DNA of 64,000 bases from an uncultured Gammaproteobacteria bacterium (GTDB taxonomy: Bacteria > Patescibacteriota > Patescibacteriia > 2-12-FULL-60-25). This document shows positions 17,286 through 42,357 of the stretch, one piece after another. Under the pieces are notes generated by a model. That model made no database searches. It saw only the letters and a list, made by a program, of their open reading frames with translations, and was not told the origin of the DNA. Every line of letters begins with the position of its first letter. The first letter of the stretch is position 1. The stretch lies in NCBI GenBank assembly GCA_964474805.1, contig CAYYTQ010000003.1, forward strand, positions 8,343 to 72,342, given 5' to 3'. The translations under genes and the position numbers were made by a program.

Positions 17286-17308
17286 CCGCCAAAATGGCGG
17301 ATTTTTTT
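17286..17308 (+). terminator. Rho-independent terminator
   Basis: CCGCC-AAAAT-GGCGG followed by ATTTTTTTA, directly after the stop at 17285. It overlaps the stop of the convergent asnB-like gene. Confidence 0.7.
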
Positions 17309-19094: not shown

Positions 19095-19269
19095 AGGAAA
19101 AAGGGCTAATGAATTACTTTTAATGATCTTCTCCAGCGCGAGCTCCGACGAGCCGCCGCTAGATGGACAATCGAACCAATATACACCGCGATCCATAGGC
19201 GCTCGTGAAGCGCAGCAAATGGTCGGAAGACCGATTCTACGATGTCAAAAATGCCTCGTTCCGCTTGCT

Positions 19270-25113: not shown

Positions 25114-26385
25114 TCAAGCCCCGTCAGGGACAGACCAATCTGGACGCAGGAATCCTGGGCTATTACTGTCAGAAATACGGAAGCGGCGGCCCAAGCCGGC
25201 AATATTCTCAACACGGAAGATGAGCGATCCCTCATCCTTCACGATGCGCTTGCTGTTGTGGATGCCAATATCCATCTCAATCTTGTAGATACCCTGGTAT
25301 AGCGTATTCGCAGGAATAATGAAGCGTTTTTTGAATGGGCCGGGCTGCAGCCGCGGCGCGATCGTCTCTTCACGGTCATCGTAGAGGGTGTAAGCCAAGC
25401 GCTGGCTCAGGCCAGAATAGAGGGAAAAACCGAAGATCAGGTCATCAACCGGCTTCAAAATTTCGGCTTCGATGCAGACCTCGATCGGTGCCGCGGTGTG
25501 CAGAATGCCCATATTTTCAGCATCCAGACTCTTAATGGAAGTTCGTGTCAAGCGAACTTGGTCGTCACCGGCGACCCCCTCCCACTGCTGCTGATCCCCA
25601 CTCTTGTACTCATCTGCATAGGCCTCCAGAACCTCGGCCGTCGTCCCGACCATTCGCAACCGACCCTTTTCGAGGAAGATGCACTTCTTGCAAAGGCGCT
25701 GGATGGCGGCAAGGTTATGACTCACAAACAAGATCGTCCGCCCTTCGGCTTTCGTAACCTCTTCCATCTTGCCGAGACATTTTTTTTGGAATTCAACGTC
25801 ACCCACAGCCAAGACCTCGTCGACAAGCAGAATGTCCGGCTCCATATGCGCCGCAACAGAAAAGGCTAAACGTACATACATCCCGCTAGAATAGTATTTA
25901 ACGGGCGTATCCAAAAACTTCTCAATGCCGGCAAAAGCGACAATCTCGTCGAATTTCCGAGTGATCTCACTTTTTGTCATGCCCAAGATGGCGCCGTTCA
26001 GAAAGACGTTCTCGCGACCTGTAAGCTCCGGGTGGAATCCCGTACCAACCTCGAGCAAGGATGCAACGCGGCCACGCATGACGATTTCGCCTTCCGTCGG
26101 CGGCGTAATGCCCGTCAAGATCTTGAGAAGCGTAGATTTACCAGCTCCGTTCGCACCAACGATGCCAACGACCTCCCCCTGAAAAATGTCGCAGCTGATC
26201 TCGCGAAGGGCCCAAAAATCCTCTTTTTTAGCTAAACCGAAGGCCTCTTTCGCCTTCCGAGCAAAGAACGCGAGCGGACGGCGGGCGACACTCGTCAGTA
26301 CATCGCGCAAGGCAATGTAGCCGCCTTTCGGGCGATTAATGTTATAGCGCTTCCCCAACCCGCGCATCTGGATGATCGGTTCCAT
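25114..26385 (-). CDS. wzt: Polysaccharide ABC exporter ATP-binding protein (Wzt/TagH type) with ~170-aa C-terminal extra domain
   Basis: 423 aa. Walker A is GIVGANGAGKSTLLKIL, the signature is YSSGMYVRLAFS and Walker B is ILLVDEVLAVGD. A beta-rich C-terminal extension (aa ~255-423) sits where Wzt glycan-cap-binding domains occur. Confidence 0.9.
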   Translation of the reverse strand: MEPIIQMRGLGKRYNINRPKGGYIALRDVLTSVARRPLAFFARKAKEAFGLAKKEDFWALREISCDIFQGEVVGIVGANGAGKSTLLKILTGITPPTEGEIVMRGRVASLLEVGTGFHPELTGRENVFLNGAILGMTKSEITRKFDEIVAFAGIEKFLDTPVKYYSSGMYVRLAFSVAAHMEPDILLVDEVLAVGDVEFQKKCLGKMEEVTKAEGRTILFVSHNLAAIQRLCKKCIFLEKGRLRMVGTTAEVLEAYADEYKSGDQQQWEGVAGDDQVRLTRTSIKSLDAENMGILHTAAPIEVCIEAEILKPVDDLIFGFSLYSGLSQRLAYTLYDDREETIAPRLQPGPFKKRFIIPANTLYQGIYKIEMDIGIHNSKRIVKDEGSLIFRVENIAGLGRRFRISDSNSPGFLRPDWSVPDGA

Positions 26386-26391
26386 AGAAGA

Positions 26392-27228
26392 TCAGATGAT
26401 GTCCGCGAAATAGCGTTCAACTTTCTTAAAATAGATGGCCCCGACGGCGAGCAAGAGCAAGCAGGCCACGAAGGAGAGAGCGATCAGGAGCCAATTGATG
26501 GGCGCCGTTCCCAATAGCGCCGCACGCGCGTTTTGAATGACGCCGGTCATCGGATTAATGGCCAGGATCCACGAGCGAGAACCAGCCACGCTCGCCGGAT
26601 AGATGACCGGCGTGATGAAGAGCAGAATTTGGATGAAAAACGGGAGAACGAAACGAACATCGCGGTACTTTACGTTCACAGCCGCCAAGAAGAGCCCCCC
26701 ACCGACTGCAGCCATGAACGCGATGAAGAGAAGAAGCGGAACAACCAGTAAGCCGGCTAAGTGCGGCGTATAGCCATAATAAACCATCATCCCCACCAAA
26801 ATCAGGGCCGCGATCCCAAAATCAACCAGTTTGGTTATGACTGCCGACAGCGGCAGCACCAACCGCGGGAAATAGACCTTCGTGATGATCGCTTGGTTCG
26901 AGATGAGAACGCCGCTCGTCTCGGAAAGAGCTCCGGAAAAGAACTGCCAGAAGAGCAAACCTGTATAGACGAAGATGGGATAAGGCACGCCATCAGACGG
27001 GGCGCGCAACAACCCCCCAAAGAAGACACTAAAAACCACCATGGTCACGAGCGGCTGAAAGACAGACCACAGAATCCCGATCGCGGTTTGCTTGTAGCGA
27101 ACTTTGAGGTCACGCCACGTAAAAAAATAAAGGAGCTCCTTGTAACGCCAAATTTCGCGGGCGTCTTCCCAGCTGAGGGTCTTCTTGGGACGGATGACGG
27201 TCGTAGCGGTAGGCATAAGCGTTACCAA
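26392..27228 (-). CDS. wzm: Polysaccharide ABC exporter permease (ABC-2 type, Wzm/TagG)
   Basis: 278 aa with 6 TM helices. N-terminal YKELLYFFTWRDLKVRYKQTAIGILWSVFQPL is typical of ABC2_membrane. Confidence 0.9.
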   Translation of the reverse strand: MVTLMPTATTVIRPKKTLSWEDAREIWRYKELLYFFTWRDLKVRYKQTAIGILWSVFQPLVTMVVFSVFFGGLLRAPSDGVPYPIFVYTGLLFWQFFSGALSETSGVLISNQAIITKVYFPRLVLPLSAVITKLVDFGIAALILVGMMVYYGYTPHLAGLLVVPLLLFIAFMAAVGGGLFLAAVNVKYRDVRFVLPFFIQILLFITPVIYPASVAGSRSWILAINPMTGVIQNARAALLGTAPINWLLIALSFVACLLLLAVGAIYFKKVERYFADII

Positions 27229-29259: not shown

Positions 29260-30384
29260 TCATCCTCTAGAGACGCTCGAAATCCACGTACGATACGCCC
29301 GCATCTGTAGGGACTGCGTCCAAGGAGGCGGGGTGACGGAGGCGTCCGGCGCCCGCAAACCATCTAATGCCCTCGACCAGACCAACGGATCATCAGAAGG
29401 AACGACCTGGACCAACGCTGGATGAATTTCCGCCGCTTCTGGATTGCCTCCGCAACGGCTCACGAATGAGGGGCACCCGTATTGGGCTGCTTCAAGCGGC
29501 ATATGGGGTAGGCCCTCGTACAGGGACGGGAGGAGAAAAGCGGTCGCAACACGATACCAAGACGCCAGACGCGCCGCCGAACAGCGGCCCAGCCAAACAA
29601 CACGTCCAGCAACACCAAGCTTCATCGCAAGTCGTTGCCAAACAGGCATGCAGGGACCTTCGCCCGCGACCAGCAAAACATCTGCGTCTGGCCGATGTAC
29701 AAGCATCTTCAAGAGAAGGTCGATCCGTTTCCACGGCACCAGCCGGCCACCGGCAAGCCAGAGGCGCTTTCCTTCCAGGCCAAAAGCGGCACGCAAGGAT
29801 GGTTCGGACTCATCCGGCCGTACCCGATGGACCGCGTTATAGATCACGGCGATTCGAGTCTGCGGAACACCCCAAGCGCAAACGACGCCTTGCAAGTAAC
29901 GACTGGGAACCAAGATCCGGCAGGCATAGCGTGCGACCATCCCTTGGAGCCAACGGATGAGAGCTGCGTTCAAAGAAGGCGGTTTTTCTTGCAAAAATTC
30001 GTCGAGGGAGCGGGCGTATCCGCCACGTTGCGCAGCTTCCCAAGCCACGTCTCCGACGACCTTCAGAACAAAAGGTTTTCGCGCCAACCAAGCCGCGAGA
30101 GCGGCGGGCACACCCTCCGAAACGGGACCTTGGGCAAATACCACGTCCGCTGTCCGCGCCAATACAAACGTTTGCCAGGCATAGCGGGCATACCGCCACA
30201 GAACACTCTTTCCACGGGAAACAATGGTCACGGGCACAGGTCCGGAAAGCGTGCTCGCGTCTCCATAGGTCACGATCTGAACCACATCGCCTTCCGCCCG
30301 CAACGCATCTGCAAGGTCACGGGTAAACGTGGCCGGGCCACCGATTTCTGGAGGATAGATGCCGGTCGCCAAGACCACGTTCAT
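29260..30384 (-). CDS. Glycosyltransferase family 4
   Basis: The track ORF runs to 30435. ATG at 30384 overlaps the upstream stop (ATGA) and gives MNVVLATGIYPPEIGGPATFTRDLADAL. C-terminal motif LLPSLYEGLPHMPLEAAQYGCPSFVSRCGGNPE. Confidence 0.8.
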   Translation of the reverse strand: MNVVLATGIYPPEIGGPATFTRDLADALRAEGDVVQIVTYGDASTLSGPVPVTIVSRGKSVLWRYARYAWQTFVLARTADVVFAQGPVSEGVPAALAAWLARKPFVLKVVGDVAWEAAQRGGYARSLDEFLQEKPPSLNAALIRWLQGMVARYACRILVPSRYLQGVVCAWGVPQTRIAVIYNAVHRVRPDESEPSLRAAFGLEGKRLWLAGGRLVPWKRIDLLLKMLVHRPDADVLLVAGEGPCMPVWQRLAMKLGVAGRVVWLGRCSAARLASWYRVATAFLLPSLYEGLPHMPLEAAQYGCPSFVSRCGGNPEAAEIHPALVQVVPSDDPLVWSRALDGLRAPDASVTPPPWTQSLQMRAYRTWISSVSRG

Positions 30385-31526
30385 ACCCGCAAGGCCTGGA
30401 TCATCGCATGGATGCGGTCGGCGATGCCTTGCCAAGCGTAACCCTCACGGATGAGGCGCGGACCGGCGTGGGTCAATTTTTCGCGTAAGGCGGCATCATC
30501 CAAAAGCCGTCGGACGGTTTGGGCGACCGAAGCCGGATCATGCGGCTGGCAGAACACGCCGGTCTCACCATCGACCAAGAAATCCGGAATCCCCCCGACT
30601 GGTGTGCCAATGGTCGGTAGCCCAACAGCCATAGCCTCCAGAAACGAGATCCCCAAACCTTCCGACAAGGAGGCGCGAATAAATAAGTCCGAGGCGCGCA
30701 ACAAGCCCGGCAGCTCGGCGTGGTCGCGCTTCCCCAAAAACTGGACGCGCTCGCCGACGCCTTTTTCGATGACCAACGCCTTTAACTTGTCTTCATCAGC
30801 CCCTTCGCCGACGATCAGGAACTTCACGCGTTCCGGAAGGGACGGTAGAGCGCGGATAACATCGTCGATACCATTCTTGAGCGTTAGGCGTGACGTGGTC
30901 GTGAGTACAACGTCCGTGGGCGTGTAACCAAGAGATTTCCGCAACGCCAGACGGTCTTCTTCCGAAAACGGTTGGTTGAAGCGTTCGATATCTACCCCGT
31001 TCGGGATCACCTGAGGAGCAACGCGAGCGCCCATGCGGACGGCCCACTTCGCCAAGAAATGGCTAATCGCCTGCACGGCATCGGCCCGTTGGAAGATCTT
31101 CCGGAAGAGGCCGCGAAACCAACCAACGCGCTGGTCGATGTATTCGAGCGGGTCCCCCTCCTGCAGCGTGAGCAGGAAGCGAGTCTTAGGCCGCATCCAG
31201 GCATAAAACAAGGCAGCAAAGCCGTTATAGCTCGCCATCAGCGACCAAATGACCGGACGCTCAACGTGACGCTGAATCCACCACGCCCGCCACGGCGCAA
31301 GCACTGCTAAGAGGTACTTGTCGATGTGATGTCCGATCCCCAACCGATGGACCAGGACATTACCGATCCGCTCGCAGGCCGGCAAGCCTGGACGGATTTG
31401 TGCCGTAATCAGGTGAAATTCCTCCTGCGGCAAGCGGTCGGTGATCTCTTTCATGGCCACTTCGGCCCCACCCACCAGCGGGAAATACGCGGTGGAGAAA
31501 ATGACGATCGGATCGGGTTTGGACAT
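30381..31526 (-). CDS. Glycosyltransferase family 4
   Basis: 381 aa with IVIFSTAYFPLVGGAEVAMKEI and IRASLSEGLGISFLEAMAVGLPTIGTPVGGIPDFL. Confidence 0.85.
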   Translation of the reverse strand: MSKPDPIVIFSTAYFPLVGGAEVAMKEITDRLPQEEFHLITAQIRPGLPACERIGNVLVHRLGIGHHIDKYLLAVLAPWRAWWIQRHVERPVIWSLMASYNGFAALFYAWMRPKTRFLLTLQEGDPLEYIDQRVGWFRGLFRKIFQRADAVQAISHFLAKWAVRMGARVAPQVIPNGVDIERFNQPFSEEDRLALRKSLGYTPTDVVLTTTSRLTLKNGIDDVIRALPSLPERVKFLIVGEGADEDKLKALVIEKGVGERVQFLGKRDHAELPGLLRASDLFIRASLSEGLGISFLEAMAVGLPTIGTPVGGIPDFLVDGETGVFCQPHDPASVAQTVRRLLDDAALREKLTHAGPRLIREGYAWQGIADRIHAMIQALRV

Positions 31527-31541
31527 ACGAACAGAAATGGG

Positions 31542-32489
31542 TTATTCCGCCTGTAAACGGGTACGGAAATCGTCGATCGTGCGCTGCAAGCCCTCCCGCA
31601 GCTGGACCCGCGGCTCCCAGCCGAGGCGCGCCTTCGCCAGCGTGATGTCGGCCTGGCGCTGCTTCGGATCGTGGTCCACGGTGGACAGGAAGGTGACGCC
31701 CGAAGAGGTGGCCGTCAGCTCGCGCACCAGGTCAGCCAACTGCCTGATCGTGAACTCGTAGGGATTGCCGAGGTTCACCGGCCCCGTGAAGCCGTCGGCC
31801 TGGATCATGCGCATCATCCCCTCGATCAGGTCGTCGACGTACTGGAACGAGCGGGTATACGAGCCGTCGCCGTACATCGTCAGGTCTTCGCCCCGCAAGG
31901 CCTGCAACACGAAGTTGGAGACGACGCGCCCGTCATCAAAGGCCATGCGCGGGCCGTACGTATTGAAGATACGGATGACGCGGATGTCGACACCATGCTC
32001 ACGATGGTAATCAAAGCAGAGGGTTTCGGCACAGCGTTTGCCTTCGTCGTAACAGCCGCGTCGCGAGATCGGGTCGACATTGCCCCAATAGGCCTCGGTT
32101 TGGGGATGGACCAGCGGATCGCCGTAGACTTCCGACGTGGACGCCTGCAGGATGCGTGCCCCCACCTCTTTCGCGAGCTCCAGCAGGTTCGCCATGCCGA
32201 TGACGTTCGTGCGCACGGTCGCGACCGGGTCAAATTGGTAATGCTTCGGACTCGCCGGACATGCCAAATTGAAGATCCATTCGACCTTCGCGAAAAACGG
32301 CTGCTGGACGTCGTGCTTCACGAACTGGAAGCGCGGATGCGTAAGCAAGTGCTCGATGTTGCGCTTTGAACCAGTGAAGAGGTTGTCCAAGCAGATGACC
32401 TCATGACCGTCCGCGATGAGCCGATCGCAAAGATGGGAACCGAGAAACCCGGCCCCACCCGTCACCAGCACGCGGTGGGCGGCAGGCAT
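31542..32489 (-). CDS. UDP-glucuronate decarboxylase (UDP-xylose synthase, UXS-type SDR)
   Basis: 315 aa with [75 protein letters not shown] and [11 protein letters not shown]. All are canonical UXS motifs. Confidence 0.9.
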
Positions 32490-32571: not shown

Positions 32572-33690
32572 ATGCCGACCGACCAAGCCCCCATCGCCCT
32601 TGCCATCACCCTCGCCAAGCCGGGCGGGACGACGTCGTTCGTGTTCCGGTTCGCCCAGTGGCTCCAGACCCAGGGGGAACGCGTCATTATCCTGGTCGGA
32701 GAGGAAGGGACTTGGCTAGAAGAGCGCTGCGCGGAGGCCAAGATCCCTCTCCAACGACTTCCTCACCTCCGACGAGCGATCCACCCCTGGCACGATTTCT
32801 GGGCTATTTCTGCCTTCCGGAGGGCCTTACGAGAAATCCAGCCGAAGGCTCTCCACCTGAACAGCTCGAAAGCAGGAGTCATCGGCTCTTTGGCGGGGCG
32901 CTTGGAGCACGTGGGACCAATCGTCTATTGCATCGGCGGGTGGGCCGCCTTAGACGCCCGCTCATCCCTCCAGCGCGCCGCCTACCTTTGGCCGGAACGT
33001 GTATCCGCCGGCTGGAAAGACACGATCGTCTGCCTCCACCCCGGGGACCTGGCTTTTGCCAAAGAGAACGGAATCCAACCACGGTCCAGGCTCGCGCTGA
33101 TTCCGAACGGGATCGACGCGCCGGCCATGCGCCAGGAGCTCTTGGAACGTACCCAGGCCCGGCATCGCCTCAACCTGCCAAAAGAAGGCTTCATTGTGGG
33201 AACGATCGCCAACTTCTATCCCGCGAAAGACCTCCCCGCCGCCTGCGCCGCCTACGCGCAAGTCCATCGAGCGCATCCGGAGGTCCGCTTTTGCCTCATC
33301 GGGGAAGGCCCTGAGCGGCCGCATATCGAAGCTGCGATCCAGAAACATGGGCTCGGAAAAGCGGTGTTCGTCGTAGGGGCCCGCGAACAGGCGTCCCAAT
33401 TCCTCAAGGCGTTCGACCTGTTCGTCCTGCCTTCCAACAAAGAAGGGATGCCGTTCGTCCTGCTGGAAGCGGCCGCGGCCGGGCTCCCGATCGTCACGAC
33501 GGATGTCGGTGCGCATGCCTGGATGCTGCCGGAAGCGACCATCGTACCACCGCAACAACCGACGGCGCTCGCCCAGGCCATCCTGAGGGCCATCGACGAC
33601 CCACAGACCCCGTCATACGAGAAGAGCTTAGCCCGCTTCGACGAAGAGACGTGCTTCCGAGCCCATCTCAACCTCCTCGCAAACAAATAG
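32572..33690 (+). CDS. Glycosyltransferase family 4
   Basis: 372 aa with FVLPSNKEGMPFVLLEAAAAGLPIVTTDVGAH. Confidence 0.85.
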   Translation: MPTDQAPIALAITLAKPGGTTSFVFRFAQWLQTQGERVIILVGEEGTWLEERCAEAKIPLQRLPHLRRAIHPWHDFWAISAFRRALREIQPKALHLNSSKAGVIGSLAGRLEHVGPIVYCIGGWAALDARSSLQRAAYLWPERVSAGWKDTIVCLHPGDLAFAKENGIQPRSRLALIPNGIDAPAMRQELLERTQARHRLNLPKEGFIVGTIANFYPAKDLPAACAAYAQVHRAHPEVRFCLIGEGPERPHIEAAIQKHGLGKAVFVVGAREQASQFLKAFDLFVLPSNKEGMPFVLLEAAAAGLPIVTTDVGAHAWMLPEATIVPPQQPTALAQAILRAIDDPQTPSYEKSLARFDEETCFRAHLNLLANK

Positions 33691-33693
33691 CCG

Positions 33694-33742
33694 AAAGAAA
33701 GACGGAGCGAACGGGATTTAGATCCTTCGTCGCTCCGTTTTA
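33694..33742. terminator. Bidirectional rho-independent terminator between convergent genes
   Basis: The long imperfect hairpin ACGGAGCGAACGGGAT-TTAG-ATCCTTCGTCGCTCCGT is followed by TTTT on the + strand and preceded by GAAAGAAA (a T-run on the minus strand). Confidence 0.65.
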
Positions 33743-33750
33743 AGCTGTCG

Positions 33751-35997
33751 TTAGCGGGTGGGAGCCGAAGCCGCTTCGAGCTCGGCGACGCTCTGCTCGT
33801 ACTTTTGCTTCCCACCAGGGAAAAGGCGCTCGACCTGGTCCACGAAACGCGTCTCCAGGTCCTTGCGGCCAGCAAGACGGGATTGGTAGGCGAATTGGTA
33901 GTAAGGACCCTCACCCCCAGCGCTGTCATCGGATCCGACCTGGTTAGCCCAGGCGTCCAACTCTGCCCCGCGGCCAAGGATACGGTACGCGTGGAACACG
34001 GGCACCAGCTCGCGGATATTGCTCGGACCGTACGGGAACGGCTTCTCCAAGGCGGAAACGATTAATCGCGCCCCGTCTTGCTCGCGCTGGAGGTCGAAGA
34101 GATACGTCAGCCCCGCCATCCAATCGCCATAGCCGTTCTCCGGATCAGCATCCTGGATGGCCTTGATCTGGGCCAGGGCGTCATCGATCCGGTTTTGCGA
34201 GATATAGAGACGAGCCAACCCTTCGTGGAGCTGCTGGCGCTTGGGGCTATAGGTCAGAGCCACTTTGAATTGCTCTTCTGCTTCCGTGGCCTGGTTAGGC
34301 ATGAATTCGGCCGTATCCGCGAGCAAACGAGCGTACACATACCGGATGTAGCTGTTCTTCGGGTGCCGATCCGTCTCCTGCTTGCCGGCGGCCTTCGCGA
34401 CATTGATCCATTCTTGCCATTGTGGGACCTTCGTGAGATTACTGCCGACGCCCACAAGGGTACGCGTCAGCAGGAAGACCTGCTCATCACGGTAAGGCGT
34501 CCAGATGCGCATGGAATCTTGGATGTTCTGGAGCGCGGAGGCCTGCGGAAAGAGCTGGCTCGCCTTGATCGTCAGGAAAGACGCCCGGAACGGCAAGATC
34601 GACGTGCGCCAGACCAACAGTCCCGCCAACAGGAAGACCGGAGCGGCCACCCAGACCCGCAGGTTCCGCGGCGTCGCATCTTCCGGATGTGCCGGCGAAG
34701 AGGCCAGGAACCCGGGACTGGTCGCCGCGATCACGAGCCCGAACATAAGGTAGCTCAGTACGAACCCAGCCGGATGGTCGAAGACAAACAAGTTCTGCAC
34801 GAAATAGGCGACCGGCAAGGCAACCAGGAACGACGCGAACACATGGTCGATCCACCCGCGCTTATAGGCCCGATACACCGACCAAAACAAGCAGAGAAAG
34901 ATCCCGATATATGTGAGGAATCCCAGGACCCCCGTCATCGATAGGACGTCGAGGACCGTGTTGTGGGCCCGGTCAAACCAGGTCTCGTACAGCGAATACC
35001 GCAACGAGATCGGGTTGTAATGCATGTTGAAGATGATGTGGAAGGTGTCCAACCCCCATCCGAAGACGGTGCGTAAAGGAGCCTCCAGGAAGCTTTCCCA
35101 AGCAATGCGCCACGCAATGAAGCGCGTCGAGGCGGTGGAAGAGAAATCCAGAAACCGATTTAGCCGCAAGGCTTGAACCACCTCGGTGCCGCGCGCAAGG
35201 TATAAAATCCCATACCCAACCATAGCGGCCACAACTGAACCGACTGCCGCGATCCGATTGCGGCGACGCTCCGATGTAATACCAAAGAACACCGCAAAGG
35301 CAACCAATCCCACGAATAATCCCACCAAAGGCCCGCGTGACTGGGATGCCGCAAAACCAGCGACGCCCAACAAGCTCAAGACTCCATAAGCGACCCACCA
35401 GCCCCGTATACGCGTTTTAAAGGCGAGCAGGGCCAGGATAAAGAACGCGAACATCTGGTACATCCCCATGTAGATCGGGTTATCGAGAATACCGCCTACA
35501 CGATCCCCCGCCCGGTAGAAGAACACTTCGGGATTCACCCACCGTTGCCAGATCGCGGTAAGCGCAACAGCCCCACCCACGAAGGCCTGCACCCGCAAGA
35601 ATGTCTCCCACTCTTTCCAGGTACGCAACATCCCGATAAGCATCACGAGCCACGCCAGGAAATGCAAGAGCGTGAAATACCCGTTCATGCGCTCCTGGTT
35701 GCCCCACCACGAGCGGAGCGGATCGATCGAGAAGACCACGGACAGGCCCATCGCCACGAAATAGGCGAGTACCGCGAAGAGCAGCGGGTGCTTACGCGGC
35801 CGGAATTCCGGCTCCATCCAAGCCAAGAGCGCATAGGCCGGAAATGTAAGGCCAACCAGGACCTGGAAGACGATCAGCTTTGAGAAAACGAAGGGAAAAA
35901 TGACCTCCTTGATGAAGACAAGCGGAATCAGCAGGCCGCCGAAGACCCCGGCCCAGGCGACCGCCTTCAGGGCGCGTACCAGCAATGGACGTGACAT
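33751..35997 (-). CDS. Wzy_C (O-antigen ligase/O-oligosaccharyltransferase family) polytopic membrane protein with C-terminal TPR-like domain
   Basis: 748 aa with ~12 hydrophobic helices over aa 1-460. Wzy_C-like region LLGVAGFAASQSRGPLVGLFVGLVAF. The C-terminal ~270 aa are soluble and TPR-like (AEEQFKVALTYSPKRQQLHEGLARLYISQNRIDDALAQIKAIQDADPENGY). Confidence 0.75.
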   Translation of the reverse strand: MSRPLLVRALKAVAWAGVFGGLLIPLVFIKEVIFPFVFSKLIVFQVLVGLTFPAYALLAWMEPEFRPRKHPLLFAVLAYFVAMGLSVVFSIDPLRSWWGNQERMNGYFTLLHFLAWLVMLIGMLRTWKEWETFLRVQAFVGGAVALTAIWQRWVNPEVFFYRAGDRVGGILDNPIYMGMYQMFAFFILALLAFKTRIRGWWVAYGVLSLLGVAGFAASQSRGPLVGLFVGLVAFAVFFGITSERRRNRIAAVGSVVAAMVGYGILYLARGTEVVQALRLNRFLDFSSTASTRFIAWRIAWESFLEAPLRTVFGWGLDTFHIIFNMHYNPISLRYSLYETWFDRAHNTVLDVLSMTGVLGFLTYIGIFLCLFWSVYRAYKRGWIDHVFASFLVALPVAYFVQNLFVFDHPAGFVLSYLMFGLVIAATSPGFLASSPAHPEDATPRNLRVWVAAPVFLLAGLLVWRTSILPFRASFLTIKASQLFPQASALQNIQDSMRIWTPYRDEQVFLLTRTLVGVGSNLTKVPQWQEWINVAKAAGKQETDRHPKNSYIRYVYARLLADTAEFMPNQATEAEEQFKVALTYSPKRQQLHEGLARLYISQNRIDDALAQIKAIQDADPENGYGDWMAGLTYLFDLQREQDGARLIVSALEKPFPYGPSNIRELVPVFHAYRILGRGAELDAWANQVGSDDSAGGEGPYYQFAYQSRLAGRKDLETRFVDQVERLFPGGKQKYEQSVAELEAASAPTR

Positions 35998-36069
35998 ATG
36001 CCCCTCAGGCTAACGGATCCGCACAAAAAAACCAACCCCCGAAGGGGTTGGTCTTTTGTACGAGATCGA

Positions 36070-39000
36070 TTACTTGCTCAAGACAACGGATCCGGAGATC
36101 GTGTCGACCAAGTATTCGTTCGTCCAGTCGCGCGAGACACTCTCGGAACCCGTGAAGATGTTCGAGTAGTGCGGCTGTTCAGCCTTGTCAGACCAGAGCA
36201 ACGCGTAAGCCGTATCGCCACCACCCGTGAGGAGGGTCGGCGCGGCAGAGGTTGCGCTGATACCAACGAGACCCGCATTCTCACCTTCAACCGTGATCTG
36301 GGCAGAGCTCTGGGCCAAGTAGCCAGTGATGGCATTGGTAGAGACCGAGCCAGAGAAGGTGCGGAGCGCCAAGCTCGTGCTGATGGAGTCACCCGTCGTC
36401 GAGCTCAAGCCACCGACCGTCGCCACGAGGGAGAAGGTCGAGCCCGTGCCGGAAACGGTTTCCTCGTTCGAGAAGCGAACGAGCACCATCATCGTCGCGG
36501 TCGCCGTGGAAGCGTAGACGTTGACCGTCGAGCTTTCCAGGTTCGTGCCGTACGCATCGCGGATATCGATGTCGGCCAAGTTCATGTCGACACCGTTCTT
36601 CTGCAAGCGGAAGTTACCGAGCGTCATGTTCGAGGTCGTCGTGACGGCAACCTTGAAGGTCATCTGCTTGATGCCGACTTCCCCGCCTTCAGAGCCAACC
36701 TGCGCGCGGTAAAGCGTGCGTTGACCAGCGGCGAGCGTCGTCGCGACGCCAGAGACTTGCGAAATGACCGGCTTCGACTTGCGAACGACGAAGGAGTTGC
36801 CAACGATGTTCGAAGCGGAGGCCTGGTAAACGCGCTCACCAGAGGCGTCACCCGTCGCACGGAGAGCCAAGTTGCCGTCGAAGAGAGCGGACGTGAAGAT
36901 CGTGCTCGCCGTCCCACCGACCGTCAGGGCGCCCGTCGGGAGACCCAGCGCAACCACGTTACCGGTCAACGGAGCCGTTGCAGACGTACGCTCCGAGGAG
37001 GAGGTCATGCGTTCTGCCATGCGGCCCAAGAGACAGACGTAGGTCGCGGAGCCTTTCGGAACCACGATCGGGTTGCTGGAGAGGTCAATCTCGCCCGGCT
37101 GGTCGACACCGCTCGGGAGAGAGGTGGTCCCGCGGATCGAGAAGGTCCGACAGTCCGCATCAGCGGATTGCACCACCGCGACACCGCCCGGGACATCGCT
37201 GCCCGCCGGGGTGGCCGAGGTGAAGTTCGCGGCAGCACCCGTGGAGGTGACACCGACGTAGTCAATACGAATCGCTTCGTACTGAGCATCCGCGCGGTAG
37301 CGGGACATCACATGCCAGGTCGTCCCATCGGCGACGAGGATCGTCGATTGGCGCTGGTTGTTAGCCGCAACCGTGAGCGTACCACCGGCACGGACGGACT
37401 GAGCGATCGTCGGAGAGGTCGAAGCGTTGTTGTCGACGGCCGTCGCACGGGAAGCGGTGACGGTGTTGCCGTCCTCGTCCTGCGCAGCGACGTCTGCATC
37501 CACATCGATACCAATCGCGAAGCGGTCCGTCGTCTTGGAGACGGAGGAGTCAGCGTTACAGCGGACTTCCAACGTCTTCGTCATGCCGCGGTTCACCTGG
37601 AGGTTGAGACCAGAGAAGGTCATCGTACCATCGCTGCTCGGGGACAAACGGGTACCGACCGCCGTGGCACCGTCGAACAAGCCACAGGAGTTGACCACGT
37701 CATCCAATTCAGCGGCAGAGTAGACCGAGTTCCCCGCTTCTGCATCACCGAAACCGGTGAACTTCAGAGAGGTAATACGTACCGCGCTCTGGGAGCCGGC
37801 CGTAAAGGTGAAACCGGCGGCCGGGATGTCCATCTGGTTCTTCACGAAGATGTCCGCGGACGGGGTCCCAGCGAGGGCCACGTTCAGGGTCGGGGTGCGC
37901 ACCGTCATGGTGTTGCCCGTCACCGTCGTGTTCGGAGCAATGCCCGTGGTCAAGAACTCACCGGAGCTCAAGATACGGAGGTCGGTGCTGCCGAAGATCT
38001 GGTCACTGGTGTTCCCACCCAAGGCAAAGCGGTAGGTAGAACCATCCGTGATGCTGTTGGAGGTGTCCGCCGTGATGACGAAGTTGCGCGTCTGGCCGGC
38101 ACGGATCGTGACGGAGACAGACGGGGAGAAGGCCTTGTAGCCCGGAGCGGCACAAGCCGTGGAACAGCTGACCGGACCAGCGACGATTTCGCCAGTGTCA
38201 GCGTCCTTGATCTTGATGTCGCGGAGGAATTCCGTCGTCCCATCGAACACGCCGGAAACGGTGCCGGTCACCGCGAAGTTCATGCGGCGGATCTCGACGT
38301 CGTTGGAGCCGGACGTGATGGCGAAGCGATAGAAGACCGCGTCGTTCTGGCCACGACCGACGTTGGCCGTTGCCGGACCATTGTAGGTGATGGTGAACTG
38401 ACCGCCTTCCGTGGTGGAGTAGCTGGCGTTGCTCGTCGTGGCGCTGGAACCATCGTAGGAACCAGAGCACGGCGAGGTCGAATCCGTACAGACCTGAGCA
38501 CCCGTGCCGTAGACGCGGTCAACGACGTAGACGTCGGACGTGTATTCGGCGTAGATGCGGATCGTGCGACCGGAGCGACCGGCGACCATACCGCGGAGGT
38601 TGAAGGTGCGAGACTGGCCGTTCGGGATGACGAACGGGGTCGCGAAGTTCAACACGATCTTCCCGTCAGCCGCAACCGTGCTGGCCGCAGCGACTTCCGT
38701 CGCGCCCTGGTAGAGCTTGAGGTTGGTGAGATCGGAGTTGGAGATCGTGCCAGCCTGGTAGAGCGTGACGCGGCGGACTTCGACGTCGTTGGAACCGTTC
38801 GCCTGGAGGCGGAAGTTCGCAAGTTCGGCGTCAGCCGTACCAACGCGCGGGTTGGCCGGTTCGGAACCGTCGATCACGTCAACGCGAGCCACGGAAGCGG
38901 TACCGACCGTCATCGCGTTGCCGCGAACCGGGAAGGAACCGGAGACCGTGCTGGAACCCTCGACGACGACCGAGGCCGCGTCAGCGAGTTCGAAGGCGTG

Positions 39001-40059
39001 CTGACCACCCGTCGAGCTCGGGCTGGAGAGGTCCGCCGAGACGTACACGGATTGGGTCATGCCGGCCGCGATGTCAAGCATCAGGCCGTTGAATTCGACC
39101 GTGTTGGACGCCGAGCTGATCGTGCGGCCAGAGGTCAAACGCGTGCCGTCCGCCTTGTAGAGGTAGACGTTGCTGAAGTCCGTGGTGGAACCAACGCCCA
39201 CGCGGCGGAACTTCATGCCCGTGACGCGGATCGAGCCGCTACCGGCCATCAAGTTCACCTTGGTGAACATGACGCTCTGGGCGTTCTTCGGGAGGACCAT
39301 GGCGGCCGGAGAATCCGAGGCCAAGGACACCGTCAAAGCGCCGCCGACCGGGGTCGTAGAACCACCGGAGGACATGATCGCATCAGAGAGTTCGGCTTCG
39401 CGGGAGTTGACGTCCGTACCCATCGGGTAGGAGATCGTCGTCTGGATCACGTTGCCGGATTGGAACATGTTCGCGCTGAAGCCAGCGTCCGTGATGCGGC
39501 GGCGCATGCCACCCCACACGACGTAGCGGTCAGAGGAACCCGAGTAGGACACCAACGAACCATCCGGGTGGACGGCCGTGGCGAGCGAGGAGCCGATCGT
39601 GTAGTTGACGAAGAAGGCATCCGGGACGTCAACGACGCGGCGGGCCCAGTTCGAGCCGAACAAGGCGGTCGCGACCGATTCGGTCTCGACCCAGCGGAGC
39701 ATACCGCCACGAGTGACGGCGTAGACTTTCGGATCCGTCGTGATCTTCACGAGGTTCGTGCCCGGGCGGATGGTGACGTTGCCACCAATCATGATCGCCG
39801 AGAGCTCGGAGTCGCTGATCGTGCGGACGCCGGAGAAGTCAGAGAACCACGAGCGATACGTCGTCTCATTCGGGAAGACGTAGCGGCGGTTGTTTTGGAA
39901 GTAGTAGACAGCCGGACCAGAAGCCTTGATGAGGTCACCGTTCATGAGGGTGGCCGCAGATGCCACAGAAGGCACCGCGAACGCACCGACACCGACGGAG
40001 GACAACACCGTGGAAAGGGTCGCGACCGTAGACACTACCTTTTTGGAAAATTGACCCAT
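36070..40059 (-). CDS. Giant secreted modular surface protein (1329 aa), function unknown
   Basis: It has a Sec signal peptide (MGQFSKKVVSTVATLSTVLSSVGVGAFAVPSVASA|ATL) and three ~55-aa N-terminal repeats. At least 6 diverged beta-rich modules follow. The protein is rich in Ser/Thr/Gly/Ala/Val/Asn. I recognised no LPXTG, SLH, lipobox or C-terminal TM. Confidence 0.85.
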   Translation of the reverse strand: MGQFSKKVVSTVATLSTVLSSVGVGAFAVPSVASAATLMNGDLIKASGPAVYYFQNNRRYVFPNETTYRSWFSDFSGVRTISDSELSAIMIGGNVTIRPGTNLVKITTDPKVYAVTRGGMLRWVETESVATALFGSNWARRVVDVPDAFFVNYTIGSSLATAVHPDGSLVSYSGSSDRYVVWGGMRRRITDAGFSANMFQSGNVIQTTISYPMGTDVNSREAELSDAIMSSGGSTTPVGGALTVSLASDSPAAMVLPKNAQSVMFTKVNLMAGSGSIRVTGMKFRRVGVGSTTDFSNVYLYKADGTRLTSGRTISSASNTVEFNGLMLDIAAGMTQSVYVSADLSSPSSTGGQHAFELADAASVVVEGSSTVSGSFPVRGNAMTVGTASVARVDVIDGSEPANPRVGTADAELANFRLQANGSNDVEVRRVTLYQAGTISNSDLTNLKLYQGATEVAAASTVAADGKIVLNFATPFVIPNGQSRTFNLRGMVAGRSGRTIRIYAEYTSDVYVVDRVYGTGAQVCTDSTSPCSGSYDGSSATTSNASYSTTEGGQFTITYNGPATANVGRGQNDAVFYRFAITSGSNDVEIRRMNFAVTGTVSGVFDGTTEFLRDIKIKDADTGEIVAGPVSCSTACAAPGYKAFSPSVSVTIRAGQTRNFVITADTSNSITDGSTYRFALGGNTSDQIFGSTDLRILSSGEFLTTGIAPNTTVTGNTMTVRTPTLNVALAGTPSADIFVKNQMDIPAAGFTFTAGSQSAVRITSLKFTGFGDAEAGNSVYSAAELDDVVNSCGLFDGATAVGTRLSPSSDGTMTFSGLNLQVNRGMTKTLEVRCNADSSVSKTTDRFAIGIDVDADVAAQDEDGNTVTASRATAVDNNASTSPTIAQSVRAGGTLTVAANNQRQSTILVADGTTWHVMSRYRADAQYEAIRIDYVGVTSTGAAANFTSATPAGSDVPGGVAVVQSADADCRTFSIRGTTSLPSGVDQPGEIDLSSNPIVVPKGSATYVCLLGRMAERMTSSSERTSATAPLTGNVVALGLPTGALTVGGTASTIFTSALFDGNLALRATGDASGERVYQASASNIVGNSFVVRKSKPVISQVSGVATTLAAGQRTLYRAQVGSEGGEVGIKQMTFKVAVTTTSNMTLGNFRLQKNGVDMNLADIDIRDAYGTNLESSTVNVYASTATATMMVLVRFSNEETVSGTGSTFSLVATVGGLSSTTGDSISTSLALRTFSGSVSTNAITGYLAQSSAQITVEGENAGLVGISATSAAPTLLTGGGDTAYALLWSDKAEQPHYSNIFTGSESVSRDWTNEYLVDTISGSVVLSK

Positions 40060-40306
40060 AGGGAACCAATAAGGTTGGTCCCGAGCGCATCGTTTGCCAT
40101 GTTAAAGCGGCAAGGACACGTTCGGAACAAGAAGTGAGAATGAGTAACGACTCGGATCCTCCTTTTACAAGGAGCACGACCTTTATTGACCCAAGCCAAG
40201 AGGTTCGAACACGAGGCAGGAAGGTGTTCCTCATCCTGCAGGGAATCCATGCCACGAGCACAGATGCCCTGTCGGATGCGGGAGAAGCGGATCTTCTCCC
40301 CTGGAA

Positions 40307-41590
40307 CTACTTGCCTGCGGGAGTGGTTGAAGCGGTGGGCGTCAGAGCGGCGGGACTGGAGGTCGAAACCGCAGAGCCGCCGCTCCCGCCTTGCGGCGTA
40401 GCGACGCTTGAGGTTGGCGATGTAATGACCGCCGTATTGGTGGAGCCGCTTCCGCTCGGAACCTCCGAGACCGAGGAAGAGGCATTTGCGGCAGCCGAGA
40501 GGCTGGGCAGCACCGAATTCACGGTCCGTTCCGCCACCGTGACGGCGCGCGCGGCCTCCCCCAGCTTTTCTTTTAGCGTTCCGAATTGGTCTTTTTCGAG
40601 GAGTTGGCGCATTTCCTCGAGGGAGGCCTGCGCCTGCTTGAGCTGGTCAAGCGGTTCCTTGAGAAGTTCCGCCGGGGCGGCCGCTGAGGAGCTGGCTGAA
40701 GCGTTGAGGAGCGGGTCCAAGGCAAGAATTTTGGAGCTGCTGGCGGCATTGGTGATTTCCTCAACTTTTTTGGTGCTGTCGGCGATCCCTTGTGCAAGCC
40801 CTTCCATGTGGCCGGTCACTACCCGTTTGAGATCGTCGTTACTGACGACCGCCGTCACCCCTGGATCGTCGCGCTTGTCGATAAGGATCTGGACGGCCTT
40901 GAGGCCGGCGTTGACGGCGGCGACCTGGACTTCGGCGACGTTCTGCTTGATGTCGGCGGGAACGACCTCCTTGACTTCCTTGAGCGTCTGAACCAGGCGT
41001 CCGCTCTTTTCGTCTAGGTCTTTCGCGGCTTCGGCGGCCTCGGGAGCCGATGATTCCATGCCCACGTTATGGAGTTGGAGCTTGACGGCATCGAGGTCCT
41101 GCTTGAGCGAATCTGTGGCTTCGCGCAGACGATTGGCGTTCTTTGGGGCATCAGCCTTGGCGAGCTGCTTGATCTCTTCCCCACGACGTTCGACGAATTC
41201 GGCTTTGAGTTTCAGCTGATTGGGCGGCTCTTTTTCCATGAAGAGGCGCGCCTGCTCGGTCGCGAGCTTTACGGGGTAGAGCAGGTCGCCGGGTATGGAG
41301 CGTTCGGCGGCTGAAACGCTCGCGAGCGACCCTCCCAACACCACCCCGAACACCGACAGGACCGCCATGACCGGCCCTCTGATGGTTTCAACGAGCGGCC
41401 GCGGAACGAATGACAAGATGAGCGCTTTTATGCGAGCACCAAAAGACACCGGGGCACGATGTAGCGCGTCACGGCGGACTTCTTTTAAGAGAATGTTTCG
41501 GGTACGCGCCACCCATGCCGCATCGGGGCGGATGCGGCGTTCGGCATCTCTTAGTTGCCGAACGGCAATTTTGAGGTGGCGTTTGTTCAT
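40307..41590 (-). CDS. Single-pass membrane protein, putative anti-sigma factor (DUF5667-like ectodomain)
   Basis: The track ORF runs to 41749 and overlaps the sigma gene. ATG at 41590 (MNKRHLKIAVRQLRDAERR) lies 34 nt after the sigma stop. The layout is a ~75-aa cytoplasmic N-terminus, a TM helix (VMAVLSVFGVVLGGSLASVSAA), then IPGDLLYPVKLATEQARLF, a helical region and a Ser/Thr/Ala-rich tail. The anti-sigma role is inferred from position and topology. Confidence 0.5.
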   Translation of the reverse strand: MNKRHLKIAVRQLRDAERRIRPDAAWVARTRNILLKEVRRDALHRAPVSFGARIKALILSFVPRPLVETIRGPVMAVLSVFGVVLGGSLASVSAAERSIPGDLLYPVKLATEQARLFMEKEPPNQLKLKAEFVERRGEEIKQLAKADAPKNANRLREATDSLKQDLDAVKLQLHNVGMESSAPEAAEAAKDLDEKSGRLVQTLKEVKEVVPADIKQNVAEVQVAAVNAGLKAVQILIDKRDDPGVTAVVSNDDLKRVVTGHMEGLAQGIADSTKKVEEITNAASSSKILALDPLLNASASSSAAAPAELLKEPLDQLKQAQASLEEMRQLLEKDQFGTLKEKLGEAARAVTVAERTVNSVLPSLSAAANASSSVSEVPSGSGSTNTAVITSPTSSVATPQGGSGGSAVSTSSPAALTPTASTTPAGK

Positions 41591-41624: not shown

Positions 41625-42209
41625 TTACGGCTTTTTCGTATCACCGGCCTGCAGGCGTTGGAGGGCCTTGAAGGCGCGATGGTAGAGGACGCGAACTGTC
41701 CCCGCCTCCTTCCCCAGGGCTTCAGCGATGTCCTGGAAAGAGAGGTCATCGAGGAGACGGAGGGTGAGGACGTCCTGGTAATCTTCTTTCAATTGGCCGA
41801 TTTGTGCGAGAACGAGGGCGAGGTCAGCCTGGGCCTCAATGGCCCGCGACCCTTTGCCCGCATCCGAAATAATCCCTTCGTGATCAGAAGCCGGTTCGGG
41901 CACCGGAAACGTTACACTCCCCCCTTCCGCGGCGGCATGGCGACGGCGGTATTCGTCGATGACGAGGTGACGGGCGATCCGATAGAGCATCCCACGGACA
42001 TGCCGGATCTCTTCCCCGCGCTGGAGGGCCTGCCAGAAGCGGAGGAAGGTCTCGGAGGTCACTTCTTCGGCCTGCTCACGCGACGAAAGCTTCACGTAGA
42101 CAAACCGATAAATAGCCTCGACGTAGGCATCGTAAATCTGGGCGAACGCCTGCTCATCCCGAGCGGCCCGCACCCGATAGGCATAATAGGATTCGAGTAA
42201 GGAAAACAT
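41625..42209 (-). CDS. ECF-type RNA polymerase sigma-70 family factor
   Basis: ATG at 42209 (MFSLLESYYAYRVRAARDEQAFAQIYDAYVEAIYRFVYVKLSSREQAEEVTSETFLRFW) gives region 2. Region 4 is LSFQDIAEALGKEAGTVRVLYHRAFKALQ. About 194 aa with no region 1 or 3. Confidence 0.85.
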   Translation of the reverse strand: MFSLLESYYAYRVRAARDEQAFAQIYDAYVEAIYRFVYVKLSSREQAEEVTSETFLRFWQALQRGEEIRHVRGMLYRIARHLVIDEYRRRHAAAEGGSVTFPVPEPASDHEGIISDAGKGSRAIEAQADLALVLAQIGQLKEDYQDVLTLRLLDDLSFQDIAEALGKEAGTVRVLYHRAFKALQRLQAGDTKKP

Positions 42210-42357
42210 GGCGGAGACTCTCCGAAGAGAGCCGGTCACCCATTTGTCGTCAATTATTCGCTTGTTTAAGCCATTTTTTAACTAGCAGGCAAAAGCAGGC
42301 GGAAGGAATGGCGACAGAAGGAACGAGGGGGCGGGAACACGAGTCCCGAACGGGAAA

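Follow-up and report, generated by a model that had tools for sequence, protein, structure and literature searches.

A candidate surface-protein O-oligosaccharyltransferase with Wzy_C and TPR domains, encoded beside a giant secreted protein in a Patescibacteria contig

The stretch of DNA analysed here, 64,000 nucleotides of contig CAYYTQ010000003.1 (assembly GCA_964474805.1) and hereafter called the window, carries on its minus strand a gene for a 748-residue membrane protein that joins a Wzy_C domain to a C-terminal TPR domain. The gene directly follows that of a giant secreted protein. We consider the membrane protein, referred to below as the enzyme, as a candidate protein O-oligosaccharyltransferase (O-OTase) of the ultra-small bacteria of the Candidate Phyla Radiation (CPR, or Patescibacteria), with its giant neighbor as the candidate acceptor. 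The features of the two genes are these:

33751..35997, minus strand: Wzy_C/TPR gene, 748 aa (open reading frame list; Pfam Wzy_C and TPR_19; AlphaFold2 model; best Foldseek match WaaL, 7TPG)
34600..35997, minus strand: membrane domain, residues 1-466 (alignment invariants, profile alignment with 7TPG, topology analysis)
34906..35379, minus strand: Pfam Wzy_C match, residues 207-364, spanning the large external loop 268-347
33754..34599, minus strand: TPR domain, residues 467-748, all-helical and predicted to be extracytoplasmic (DSSP helices 486-742, TPR matches, topology)
36070..40059, minus strand: giant secreted protein, 1329 aa (open reading frame list, composition, homologs, AlphaFold2, Foldseek)

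The 748-aa open reading frame and the peptide AASQSRGPLVGLFVGLVAF quoted from it in a preliminary description of this DNA were both verified, as was the 1329-aa secreted-protein frame lying upstream on the same strand at a distance of 72 nt. Pfam scored Wzy_C at 59.7 bits, against a gathering cutoff of 31.7, and TPR_19 at 36.5 bits (residues 568-621); Wzy_C was matched by 31 of the 31 family members. An AlphaFold2 model was built from 31 homologs and reached a pLDDT (predicted local distance difference test) of 86 and a pTM (predicted template modeling score) of 0.84. For the membrane part, the top Foldseek match was the WaaL O-antigen ligase 7TPG_B (E = 7.9e-5 over 455 columns), with a TM-score of 0.64 normalised to the target. 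The remaining matches were TPR proteins, including the TPR domains of OGT and SPINDLY. A single-sequence search of the PDB gave weak TPR matches only, and WaaL was reached through Foldseek and the profile search, the family profile retrieving 7TPG from sequence alone with E = 4.7e-10. The Wzy_C-like region announced in the preliminary description is thus borne out by the Pfam score and by the WaaL-like fold, and the TPR-like C-terminus of ~270 aa by TPR_19 and by the all-helical part of the model (~486-742).

For the catalytic residues we relied on published work (PMC3643930, PMC12800693). R215, R288 and H338 are essential in E. coli WaaL, as are R224, R298 and H349 in N. meningitidis PglL (PMC3643930), and a study of PglS relies on the same Arg/Arg/His constellation (PMC12800693). 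In the profile alignment, R221, R292 and H345-N346 of the enzyme fall on R191, R265 and H313-N314 of WaaL 7TPG, and R221, R292 and H345-N346 are unchanged across the 31 sequences of alignment A1. The two arginines and the histidine are the counterparts of the essential residues of E. coli WaaL and PglL. The membrane domain also carries the family motifs IFPFVFSK, WWGNQERMNG and QNLFVFD-P. The match of the two arginines and the histidine gives the enzyme the catalytic equipment of a polyprenyl-pyrophosphate-glycan transferase. This set of residues is silent on the type of acceptor (lipid, polymer or protein).

Hydropathy, the helices of the model and the positive-inside rule, applied to the 31 members, agree on an N-in topology, with a Lys+Arg sum of 12.3 in the short cytoplasmic loops versus 3.7 in the external ones. 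The enzyme has a WaaL-like core of 12 transmembrane (TM) helices followed by a 13th (~445-466), and the large loop 268-347, which follows TM9, is predicted by the topology rules to lie outside. By the same rules, the 13th helix is predicted to place the ~280-aa TPR domain outside as well, on the side of the catalytic loop. Within the TPR domain the alignment has invariant polar positions, among them S584-P-x-R-Q-Q589. This SPxRQQ motif is retained in 20 of 27 distant relatives (20-30% identity).

The giant protein has a single hydrophobic segment, which is N-terminal, resembles a signal peptide and ends in VASA followed by AT. Its composition is 23.4% Ser+Thr, evenly distributed, with Cys, His and Trp scarce, and no family was found for it in Pfam or NCBIfam. 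Its homologs are full-length (1260-1385 aa), so that the length is tightly kept, and the most conserved parts are the N-terminal domain and a C-terminal motif, WSD-SE-PH...SRDWTN. The AlphaFold2 model of residues 31-1230 (pLDDT 81) shows three short repeats of moderate confidence at the N-terminus (~residues 36-215), then a linker, then ~9-10 confident beta-sandwich domains of the immunoglobulin-like (Ig-like) type. Foldseek matched this model to generic tandem Ig-like arrays only (PrgB, integrin legs, mastigonemes). The N-terminal repeat domain gave no sequence match in the PDB and has no paralog in the window or its flanks. The conserved length and the modeled domains would fit a structural surface-layer or fiber protein with an anchoring module. 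A plus-strand open reading frame of 1379 aa (35998-40137) was rejected as a gene: it is an antisense shadow of the GC-rich giant frame, with a low-complexity translation rich in Arg, Gly and Asp.

The enzyme and the giant protein each have hundreds of full-length homologs, and all named sources are Patescibacteria or Uhrbacteria metagenome-assembled genomes (MAGs), in agreement with the CPR-like lineage that had been proposed. We retrieved 80 species-representative loci and mapped the window proteins onto them; upstream sequence could be assessed in 71. A giant homolog lies directly upstream of the enzyme gene, on the same strand, in 68 of the 71, down to 39% identity, and the gaps between the two genes are mostly 70-500 nt. 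At two further loci the upstream gene encodes a different Ser/Thr-rich protein (25-30% Ser+Thr, no Pfam family):

L005:91-2166 and L041:14-1387: alternative upstream genes, with the ~120-aa N-terminal repeat domain of the giant protein at the C-terminus of their products

The shared ~120-aa domain may be an anchoring or recognition module. The conserved gene order runs from a sigma factor of the extracytoplasmic function (ECF) type and a DUF5667 protein through the ~1300-aa secreted tandem-Ig protein and the Wzy_C/TPR enzyme to a convergent GT4 glycosyltransferase gene and to AsnB, UXS and GT4 genes. We call this arrangement the cassette. Partners were counted on 44 loci with full 10-kb flanks: DUF5667 is present in 39, the giant in 43, Wzy_C/TPR in 44 and the convergent GT4 in 43, while the asparagine-synthase homologue is found in 35, the UXS-like gene in 37 and the two other GT4 genes in 40 and 41.

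The wider family is large. With an E-value cutoff of 1e-3, an exhaustive search returned 7,322 cluster representatives, a number that falls to 1,726 with a cutoff of 1e-30. The majority of these proteins are 670-800 aa long and align over both the membrane and the TPR regions at 28-33% identity; they retain the family motifs and include other CPR lineages, e.g., Magasanikbacteria. In addition, metagenomes were scanned with a 5-sequence alignment and 78 loci were examined. Where upstream sequence could be assessed, a giant homolog precedes the gene in nearly all close-clade members, L145 being an exception. Among the distant loci, defined by at most 37% identity to the window protein (28-37%), 39 were assessable, and at least 13 of these are immediately preceded, on the same strand, by a gene for a protein of at least 850 aa, or up to 18 if truncated Ser/Thr-rich frames are counted, against a background of 2.9% of flanking genes (19/659) for proteins of this size. 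The synteny of enzyme homologs with giant secreted proteins, which the preliminary description had proposed as a check, thus holds at the close loci and in part at the distant ones. Several distant partners are unrelated to the giant protein of the window, being Lamin-tail-domain proteins of 863-1511 aa:

L086:3399-7934, L093:3653-7954 and L092:1052-3643: Lamin Tail Domain giants that precede distant Wzy_C/TPR genes

Those of L086 and L093 have an N-terminus with weak similarity to Zn-dependent phospholipase C. Tandem Wzy_C/TPR paralogs were also found (L118:3567-5813 and L094:830-3148); they may reflect a division of labor, e.g., two acceptors, or a polymerase and a ligase.

Although the two genes are neighbors, they are no simple co-transcribed pair. 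The following signals and regulators lie around them:

33694..33742, no strand assigned: hairpin in the interval where the Wzy_C/TPR and GT4 genes converge (folding)
36024..36052, minus strand: intrinsic terminator of the giant gene (sequence, folding, conservation)
40159..40215, minus strand: promoter-like signal with a 5' stem-loop, ahead of the giant gene (motif counts, aligned contexts)
40307..41590, minus strand: DUF5667 single-pass membrane protein, 427 aa as called from an internal ATG (Pfam DUF5667, TM segment, gene call in L083)
41625..42239, minus strand: sigma factor of the ECF type, first gene of the cassette (Pfam Sigma70_r2, r4_2 and ECF)

It had been stated that no terminator hairpin was seen between the giant and enzyme genes. 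This proved to be wrong, since the 72-nt gap, read on the transcribed strand, contains ACCAACCCC-TTCG-GGGGTTGGT and then TTTTTTTG (window 36052-36024), that is, a GC-rich 9-bp stem with a TTCG loop and a tail of 7 T, ending ~27 nt ahead of the ATG of the enzyme gene. The structure folds at -29.2 kcal/mol (z = -6.7). Of 66 loci, 59 have a GC-rich hairpin with a T-run after the giant gene, whereas shuffles gave 9.7 on average and at most 14; the stem sequence varies among loci with the pairing maintained. The hairpin at 33694-33742, described earlier as a strong bidirectional terminator that closes the unit, does exist (-20.6 kcal/mol on the minus and -23.4 kcal/mol on the plus strand, z ~-3) but is weaker than the terminator in the gap.

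Upstream of the giant gene, between its ATG and the stop of DUF5667, we found a second conserved signal, which reads …CCTCGTGTTC…, then ~20 nt, then AAAGGTCG (40184-40177) and a stem-loop (40174-40159). The element AAAGGTCG(A) occurs ~110 nt before the giant ATG in 53 of 58 related loci, versus about 1 in shuffles. The block ~20 nt 5' of it is conserved as ATCCTCGCCA or GCTCGTGT. Directly 3' of AAAGGTCG, the stem-loop varies in sequence and keeps its pairing, and it is followed by a leader of ~100 nt. Taken together, the segment 40159-40215 reads like a dedicated promoter with a stabilizing 5' hairpin. The ECF consensus GGAAC-N15-19-CGT was found upstream of the giant gene in 1 of the 58 loci, compared with 1.9 in shuffles. 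The ECF sigma gene precedes DUF5667 in the window and in all annotated relatives examined (L075, L081, L082 and L083), and the two products may form a sigma/anti-sigma pair that controls the surface-protein gene; we found no literature on DUF5667. Flanked by a conserved promoter-like signal and a terminator, the giant gene is a transcription unit of its own. Since only ~27 nt separate the terminator from the ATG of the enzyme gene in the window, the enzyme is probably expressed mainly by read-through, at a level far below that of the structural protein. Published accounts of S-layer genes describe them as monocistronic and, in some cases, as neighbors of their glycosylation clusters (PMC2943079).

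The glycan locus described earlier on the other side of the enzyme gene, with Bac_transf, many glycosyltransferases and Wzm/Wzt, is real by Pfam. It contains a Bac_transf protein, GT1, GT2 and GT4 enzymes, nucleotide-sugar enzymes, an asparagine-synthase homologue and a Wzm/Wzt pair. The following of its genes were compared with the 44 loci (all assigned by Pfam):

32572..33690, plus strand: convergent GT4, conserved more often than any other glycan gene and in every case on the strand opposite to the enzyme gene (43/44 loci)
31542..32489, minus strand: UXS-like NAD-dependent epimerase/dehydratase (37/44 loci, median identity 72%)
29260..31526, minus strand: two GT4 glycosyltransferases, 30381-31526 and 29260-30435 (40/44 and 41/44 loci)
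25114..27228, minus strand: Wzt/Wzm ABC-2 exporter, specific to the window (1-2/44 loci)
17307..19196, minus strand: asparagine-synthase homologue (35/44 loci, at ~+3.6 kb)
5229..6605, plus strand: Bac_transf initiating phosphoglycosyl transferase, specific to the window (0/44 loci)

The enzyme had been tied to the whole of this 33-kb, ABC-exported locus, a link that does not extend to the relatives: Wzm/Wzt is near the cassette in 1-2 of the 44 relatives, Bac_transf in none, and the 777-aa glycosyltransferase and the remainder of window positions 1-27 kb in 0-2, so that these parts are specific to the window. The true conserved glycan partners are the proximal GT4, AsnB and UXS genes. In relatives the asparagine-synthase homologue adjoins the convergent GT4 (L081:13515-15290, L082:13689-15563). 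The copy in the window lies ~14 kb off, past Wzm/Wzt, and this displacement suggests that the window locus was rearranged, or grew when a variable glycan module dependent on an ABC exporter was inserted. Apart from Wzm/Wzt, no polytopic protein, Wzx-like or other, was found in the window glycan locus, nor was one found in L081 or L082, and no lipopolysaccharide (LPS)-core genes were found within the 64-kb window.

Among known systems, the closest is S-layer glycosylation (slg) in Gram-positive bacteria, and the closest enzyme architecture, judged from its published description, that of WsfB. Like the window enzyme, WsfB of Paenibacillus alvei has a Wzy_C domain and a C-terminal TPR motif, and the P. 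alvei slg locus likewise holds an asparagine-synthase homologue (wsfA) and glycosyltransferases, in a monoderm host whose S-layer gene is transcribed alone (PMC2943079). In P. alvei, however, the S-layer gene spaA is far from the slg locus, whereas here the giant gene is directly upstream of the enzyme gene. The CPR family further has invariant motifs of its own (IFPFVFSK, WWGNQERMNG and SPxRQQ) and a sigma/DUF5667 cassette. WsaB of Geobacillus stearothermophilus NRS 2004/3a, the comparator chosen in the preliminary description, is apt as a predicted O-OTase with a Wzy_C domain, with sgsE near the slg cluster and a pathway that uses Wzm/Wzt and an initiating transferase of the Gal-1-P type (PMC2943079), both matched in this window. 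It is less apt in architecture, since WsaB itself has no TPR domain and comes after a distinct TPR protein of 168 aa, WsaA (PMC2943079), while the enzyme here has its TPR domain built in and Wzm/Wzt falls outside the conserved neighborhood in the relatives of the window.

PglL, PglS and TfpO (PilO) share with the enzyme the WaaL-like fold, the Arg/Arg/His site and an extra C-terminal periplasmic domain (PMC3643930, PMC12800693), which carries a TPR motif in PglL (PMC2943079) and forms a cleft in PglS (PMC12800693). The genes pglL and tfpO commonly stand beside that of the target pilin on the same strand, and the O-OTase gene adjoins the target gene in 21 of 31 such cases (PMC3643930); the enzyme gene likewise stands beside the giant gene. 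Unlike in this group, PglL_A (PF15864) is unmatched in the 31 members, the host is monoderm and the acceptor would be a tandem-Ig protein of 1300 aa and not a pilin. WaaL of C. metallidurans (7TPG) is the best structural and profile match and its catalytic residues are kept, but it is ~400 aa long and lacks both the TPR domain and the 13th TM helix that the 748-aa enzyme has. CPR cells, described as monoderm (PMC8871954), are not expected to have the acceptor of WaaL, lipid A-core, and the enzyme gene lies outside any LPS-core locus. WpaA and WpaB of Bacillus anthracis also belong to the Wzy/WaaL clan and have a functional connection with S-layer assembly by way of a wall polymer, but they represent another Pfam family (PF13425), with no TPR domain reported and an activity that is unproven (PMC6030368). 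Finally, the TPR superhelix of OGT and SPINDLY picks protein substrates, and in the structural comparison their TPR domains rank with the closest to residues ~480-748. These are soluble, nucleotide-sugar-dependent GT-B enzymes, however, so that the likeness is one of the generic TPR fold, an analogy with no catalytic homology. Every feature tested agrees with membership of the Wzy_C/WaaL-fold superfamily. Strict membership of WaaL fails on architecture, and that of the PglL subfamily on the hidden Markov models; by architecture and gene context, the enzyme would belong with the WsfB/WsaB type.

We propose, with a probability of about one half, that the enzyme is a protein O-OTase that moves a lipid-linked glycan onto the neighboring surface protein, its external TPR domain docking the substrate. 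It would take up a polyprenyl-pyrophosphate-linked glycan at the outer face of the membrane and hand it, in the manner of an S-layer-type O-OTase, to Ser, Thr or Tyr residues of the adjacent ~1300-aa tandem-Ig protein, the presumed acceptor, for which the extracytoplasmic TPR domain would serve as a docking module. The donor glycan would be made by the neighboring glycosyltransferases and, in the window, perhaps exported by Wzm/Wzt. Low expression of the enzyme by read-through of the terminator would keep the ratio of structural protein to enzyme far above 1.

Several lines of evidence argue for this proposal. The catalytic core and fold are those of WaaL and PglL. An external TPR domain is absent from WaaL and present in, or together with, the O-OTases WsfB, PglL and WsaA/WsaB, while PglS has a C-terminal periplasmic domain. 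The adjacency to large secreted proteins is conserved, non-homologous ones included, as with pglL and pilin genes, and glycan genes are conserved just downstream, with an AsnB homologue among them that has its parallel in the slg locus of P. alvei. The giant gene is bracketed by a promoter-like signal and a terminator in the way of monocistronic S-layer genes. In the monoderm CPR envelope (PMC8871954) a lipid A-core acceptor is not expected. Moreover, the ABC-exporter locus of the window has no Wzx/Wzy-type partner.

Other observations weigh against it. PglL_A (PF15864) and Wzy_C_2 are unmatched by the window protein at E <= 10 and are outside the top 25 families of the 31 members, and NCBIfam returned for the 748-aa protein no ligase, OTase or polymerase model and only a sub-threshold TPR match. 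About half of the distant relatives have no large protein upstream, locus L016 has the enzyme with neither the giant nor the alternative repeat-domain protein, and a strong terminator parts the giant gene from the enzyme gene. The surroundings of the cassette (44 loci; L081, L082) include neither a conserved flippase nor a conserved initiating transferase. Inspection of the giant protein sequence revealed no recognizable sequon and no low-complexity acceptor linker, and no S-layer structure was among the Foldseek matches of its model, which leaves its S-layer nature unsupported. The catalytic residues fail to separate protein OTases from lipid or polymer ligases (PMC3643930, PMC12800693), and the conserved glycosyltransferase cluster could equally build a wall polymer. 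WaaL and PglL are not distinguishable by sequence alone (PMC3643930); the protein O-OTase, the wall-polymer ligase, the polymerase and the general enzyme discussed below are likewise inseparable on that basis.

The chief competitor, which we regard as unlikely but worth serious attention, is a ligase of envelope glycopolymers acting on a non-protein acceptor. The product would be a secondary cell-wall polymer or a lipid-anchored glycan to which the giant protein is anchored through its N-terminal repeats, and the synteny would then mark a module made up of an S-layer and its anchor polymer. The GT4, AsnB and UXS genes are indeed conserved as tightly as the giant gene, and the N-terminal repeats are the most conserved part of the giant, as expected of a wall-binding anchor, and are shared by the alternative proteins of L005 and L041. 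The catalytic residues fit such a ligase equally well (PMC3643930), and the terminator uncouples the giant and enzyme genes. There is a precedent in B. anthracis WpaA/WpaB, of the same Pfam clan, which are proposed to polymerize or ligate the secondary cell-wall polymer and whose depletion affects S-layer assembly, the activity itself not having been shown (PMC6030368). The family studied here, however, matches PF04932 and not the PF13425 of WpaA/WpaB, and the known ligation of glycopolymers to peptidoglycan is carried out by LCP enzymes and not by Wzy_C proteins (PMC6030368). The large outward TPR domain with its invariant polar residues suggests a protein partner, and the pairing of distant relatives with unrelated giants fits enzyme-substrate pairs better than a single conserved polymer.

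It is improbable that the adjacency reflects a mere island of cell-envelope genes, with a general O-OTase or ligase that serves many or other acceptors and has no specific link to the giant. Neisseria PglL is such a general OTase, unlinked to pilE (PMC3643930), and L016, the distant loci with no large upstream gene (about half of them) and the terminator between the two genes would agree with it. Yet an immediate, same-strand order that 68 of 71 loci keep, down to identities of 39% and with gaps mostly of 70-500 nt, is hard to reconcile with an island, as is the enrichment over the 2.9% background even with non-homologous giants. We consider it a long shot that the Wzy_C/TPR family, which counts at least 1,700 clusters at 50% identity, consists of CPR-wide transferases dedicated to surface proteins, each with a lineage-specific giant, and that their reaction is a sortase-like covalent anchoring to a lipid- or wall-linked glycan. 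If true, this would account for the attachment of CPR surface layers with no recognized wall-anchoring domain detected in the giant protein. Least probable of all is a Wzy-type polymerase that would join lipid-linked repeat units outside the cell, with the TPR domain as a built-in chain-length or co-polymerase module: the Wzy_C clan holds polymerases besides ligases (PMC6030368) and the tandem paralogs of L118 and L094 could be a polymerase and ligase pair, but the ABC exporter of the window, in a locus with no Wzx-like or other polytopic protein, makes a polymerase unnecessary there, the neighborhood of the cassette holds no conserved flippase, the ligase WaaL, with its Arg/Arg/His set, is the closest match by structure and by profile, and the adjacency to surface-protein genes would be left unexplained.

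CPR bacteria form a large and mostly uncultivated group whose surfaces mediate attachment to host cells, and their surface proteins and protein-glycosylation machinery are essentially uncharacterized. We found no published description of the cassette in CPR in the searchable literature. The present analysis nominates a highly conserved ~1300-aa protein as the candidate major surface protein of an Uhrbacteria-like clade, together with a dedicated WaaL-fold/TPR family that has so far been annotated just as 'O-antigen ligase' in hosts not expected to have LPS. It also nominates the small set of glycan genes that truly travels with the enzyme and the giant, and a likely sigma/anti-sigma module with a promoter signal. 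If the protein O-OTase were confirmed, S-layer-type O-glycosylation would extend from Firmicutes to CPR and new O-OTases with a distinct acceptor-recognition domain would be at hand.

In the complete Uhrbacteria genome of locus L081, the downstream glycan cluster also encodes a PMT_2 membrane protein (L081:19320-20741; GT-C, protein-mannosyltransferase/ArnT-like), which would add a second candidate for glycosyl transfer on the extracytoplasmic side. Finally, many contigs that carry the cassette (e.g., L001, L002 and L022; MAGs from binchicken/SRP co-assemblies) are titled 'uncultured Gammaproteobacteria bacterium', which is an evident taxonomic mislabel.

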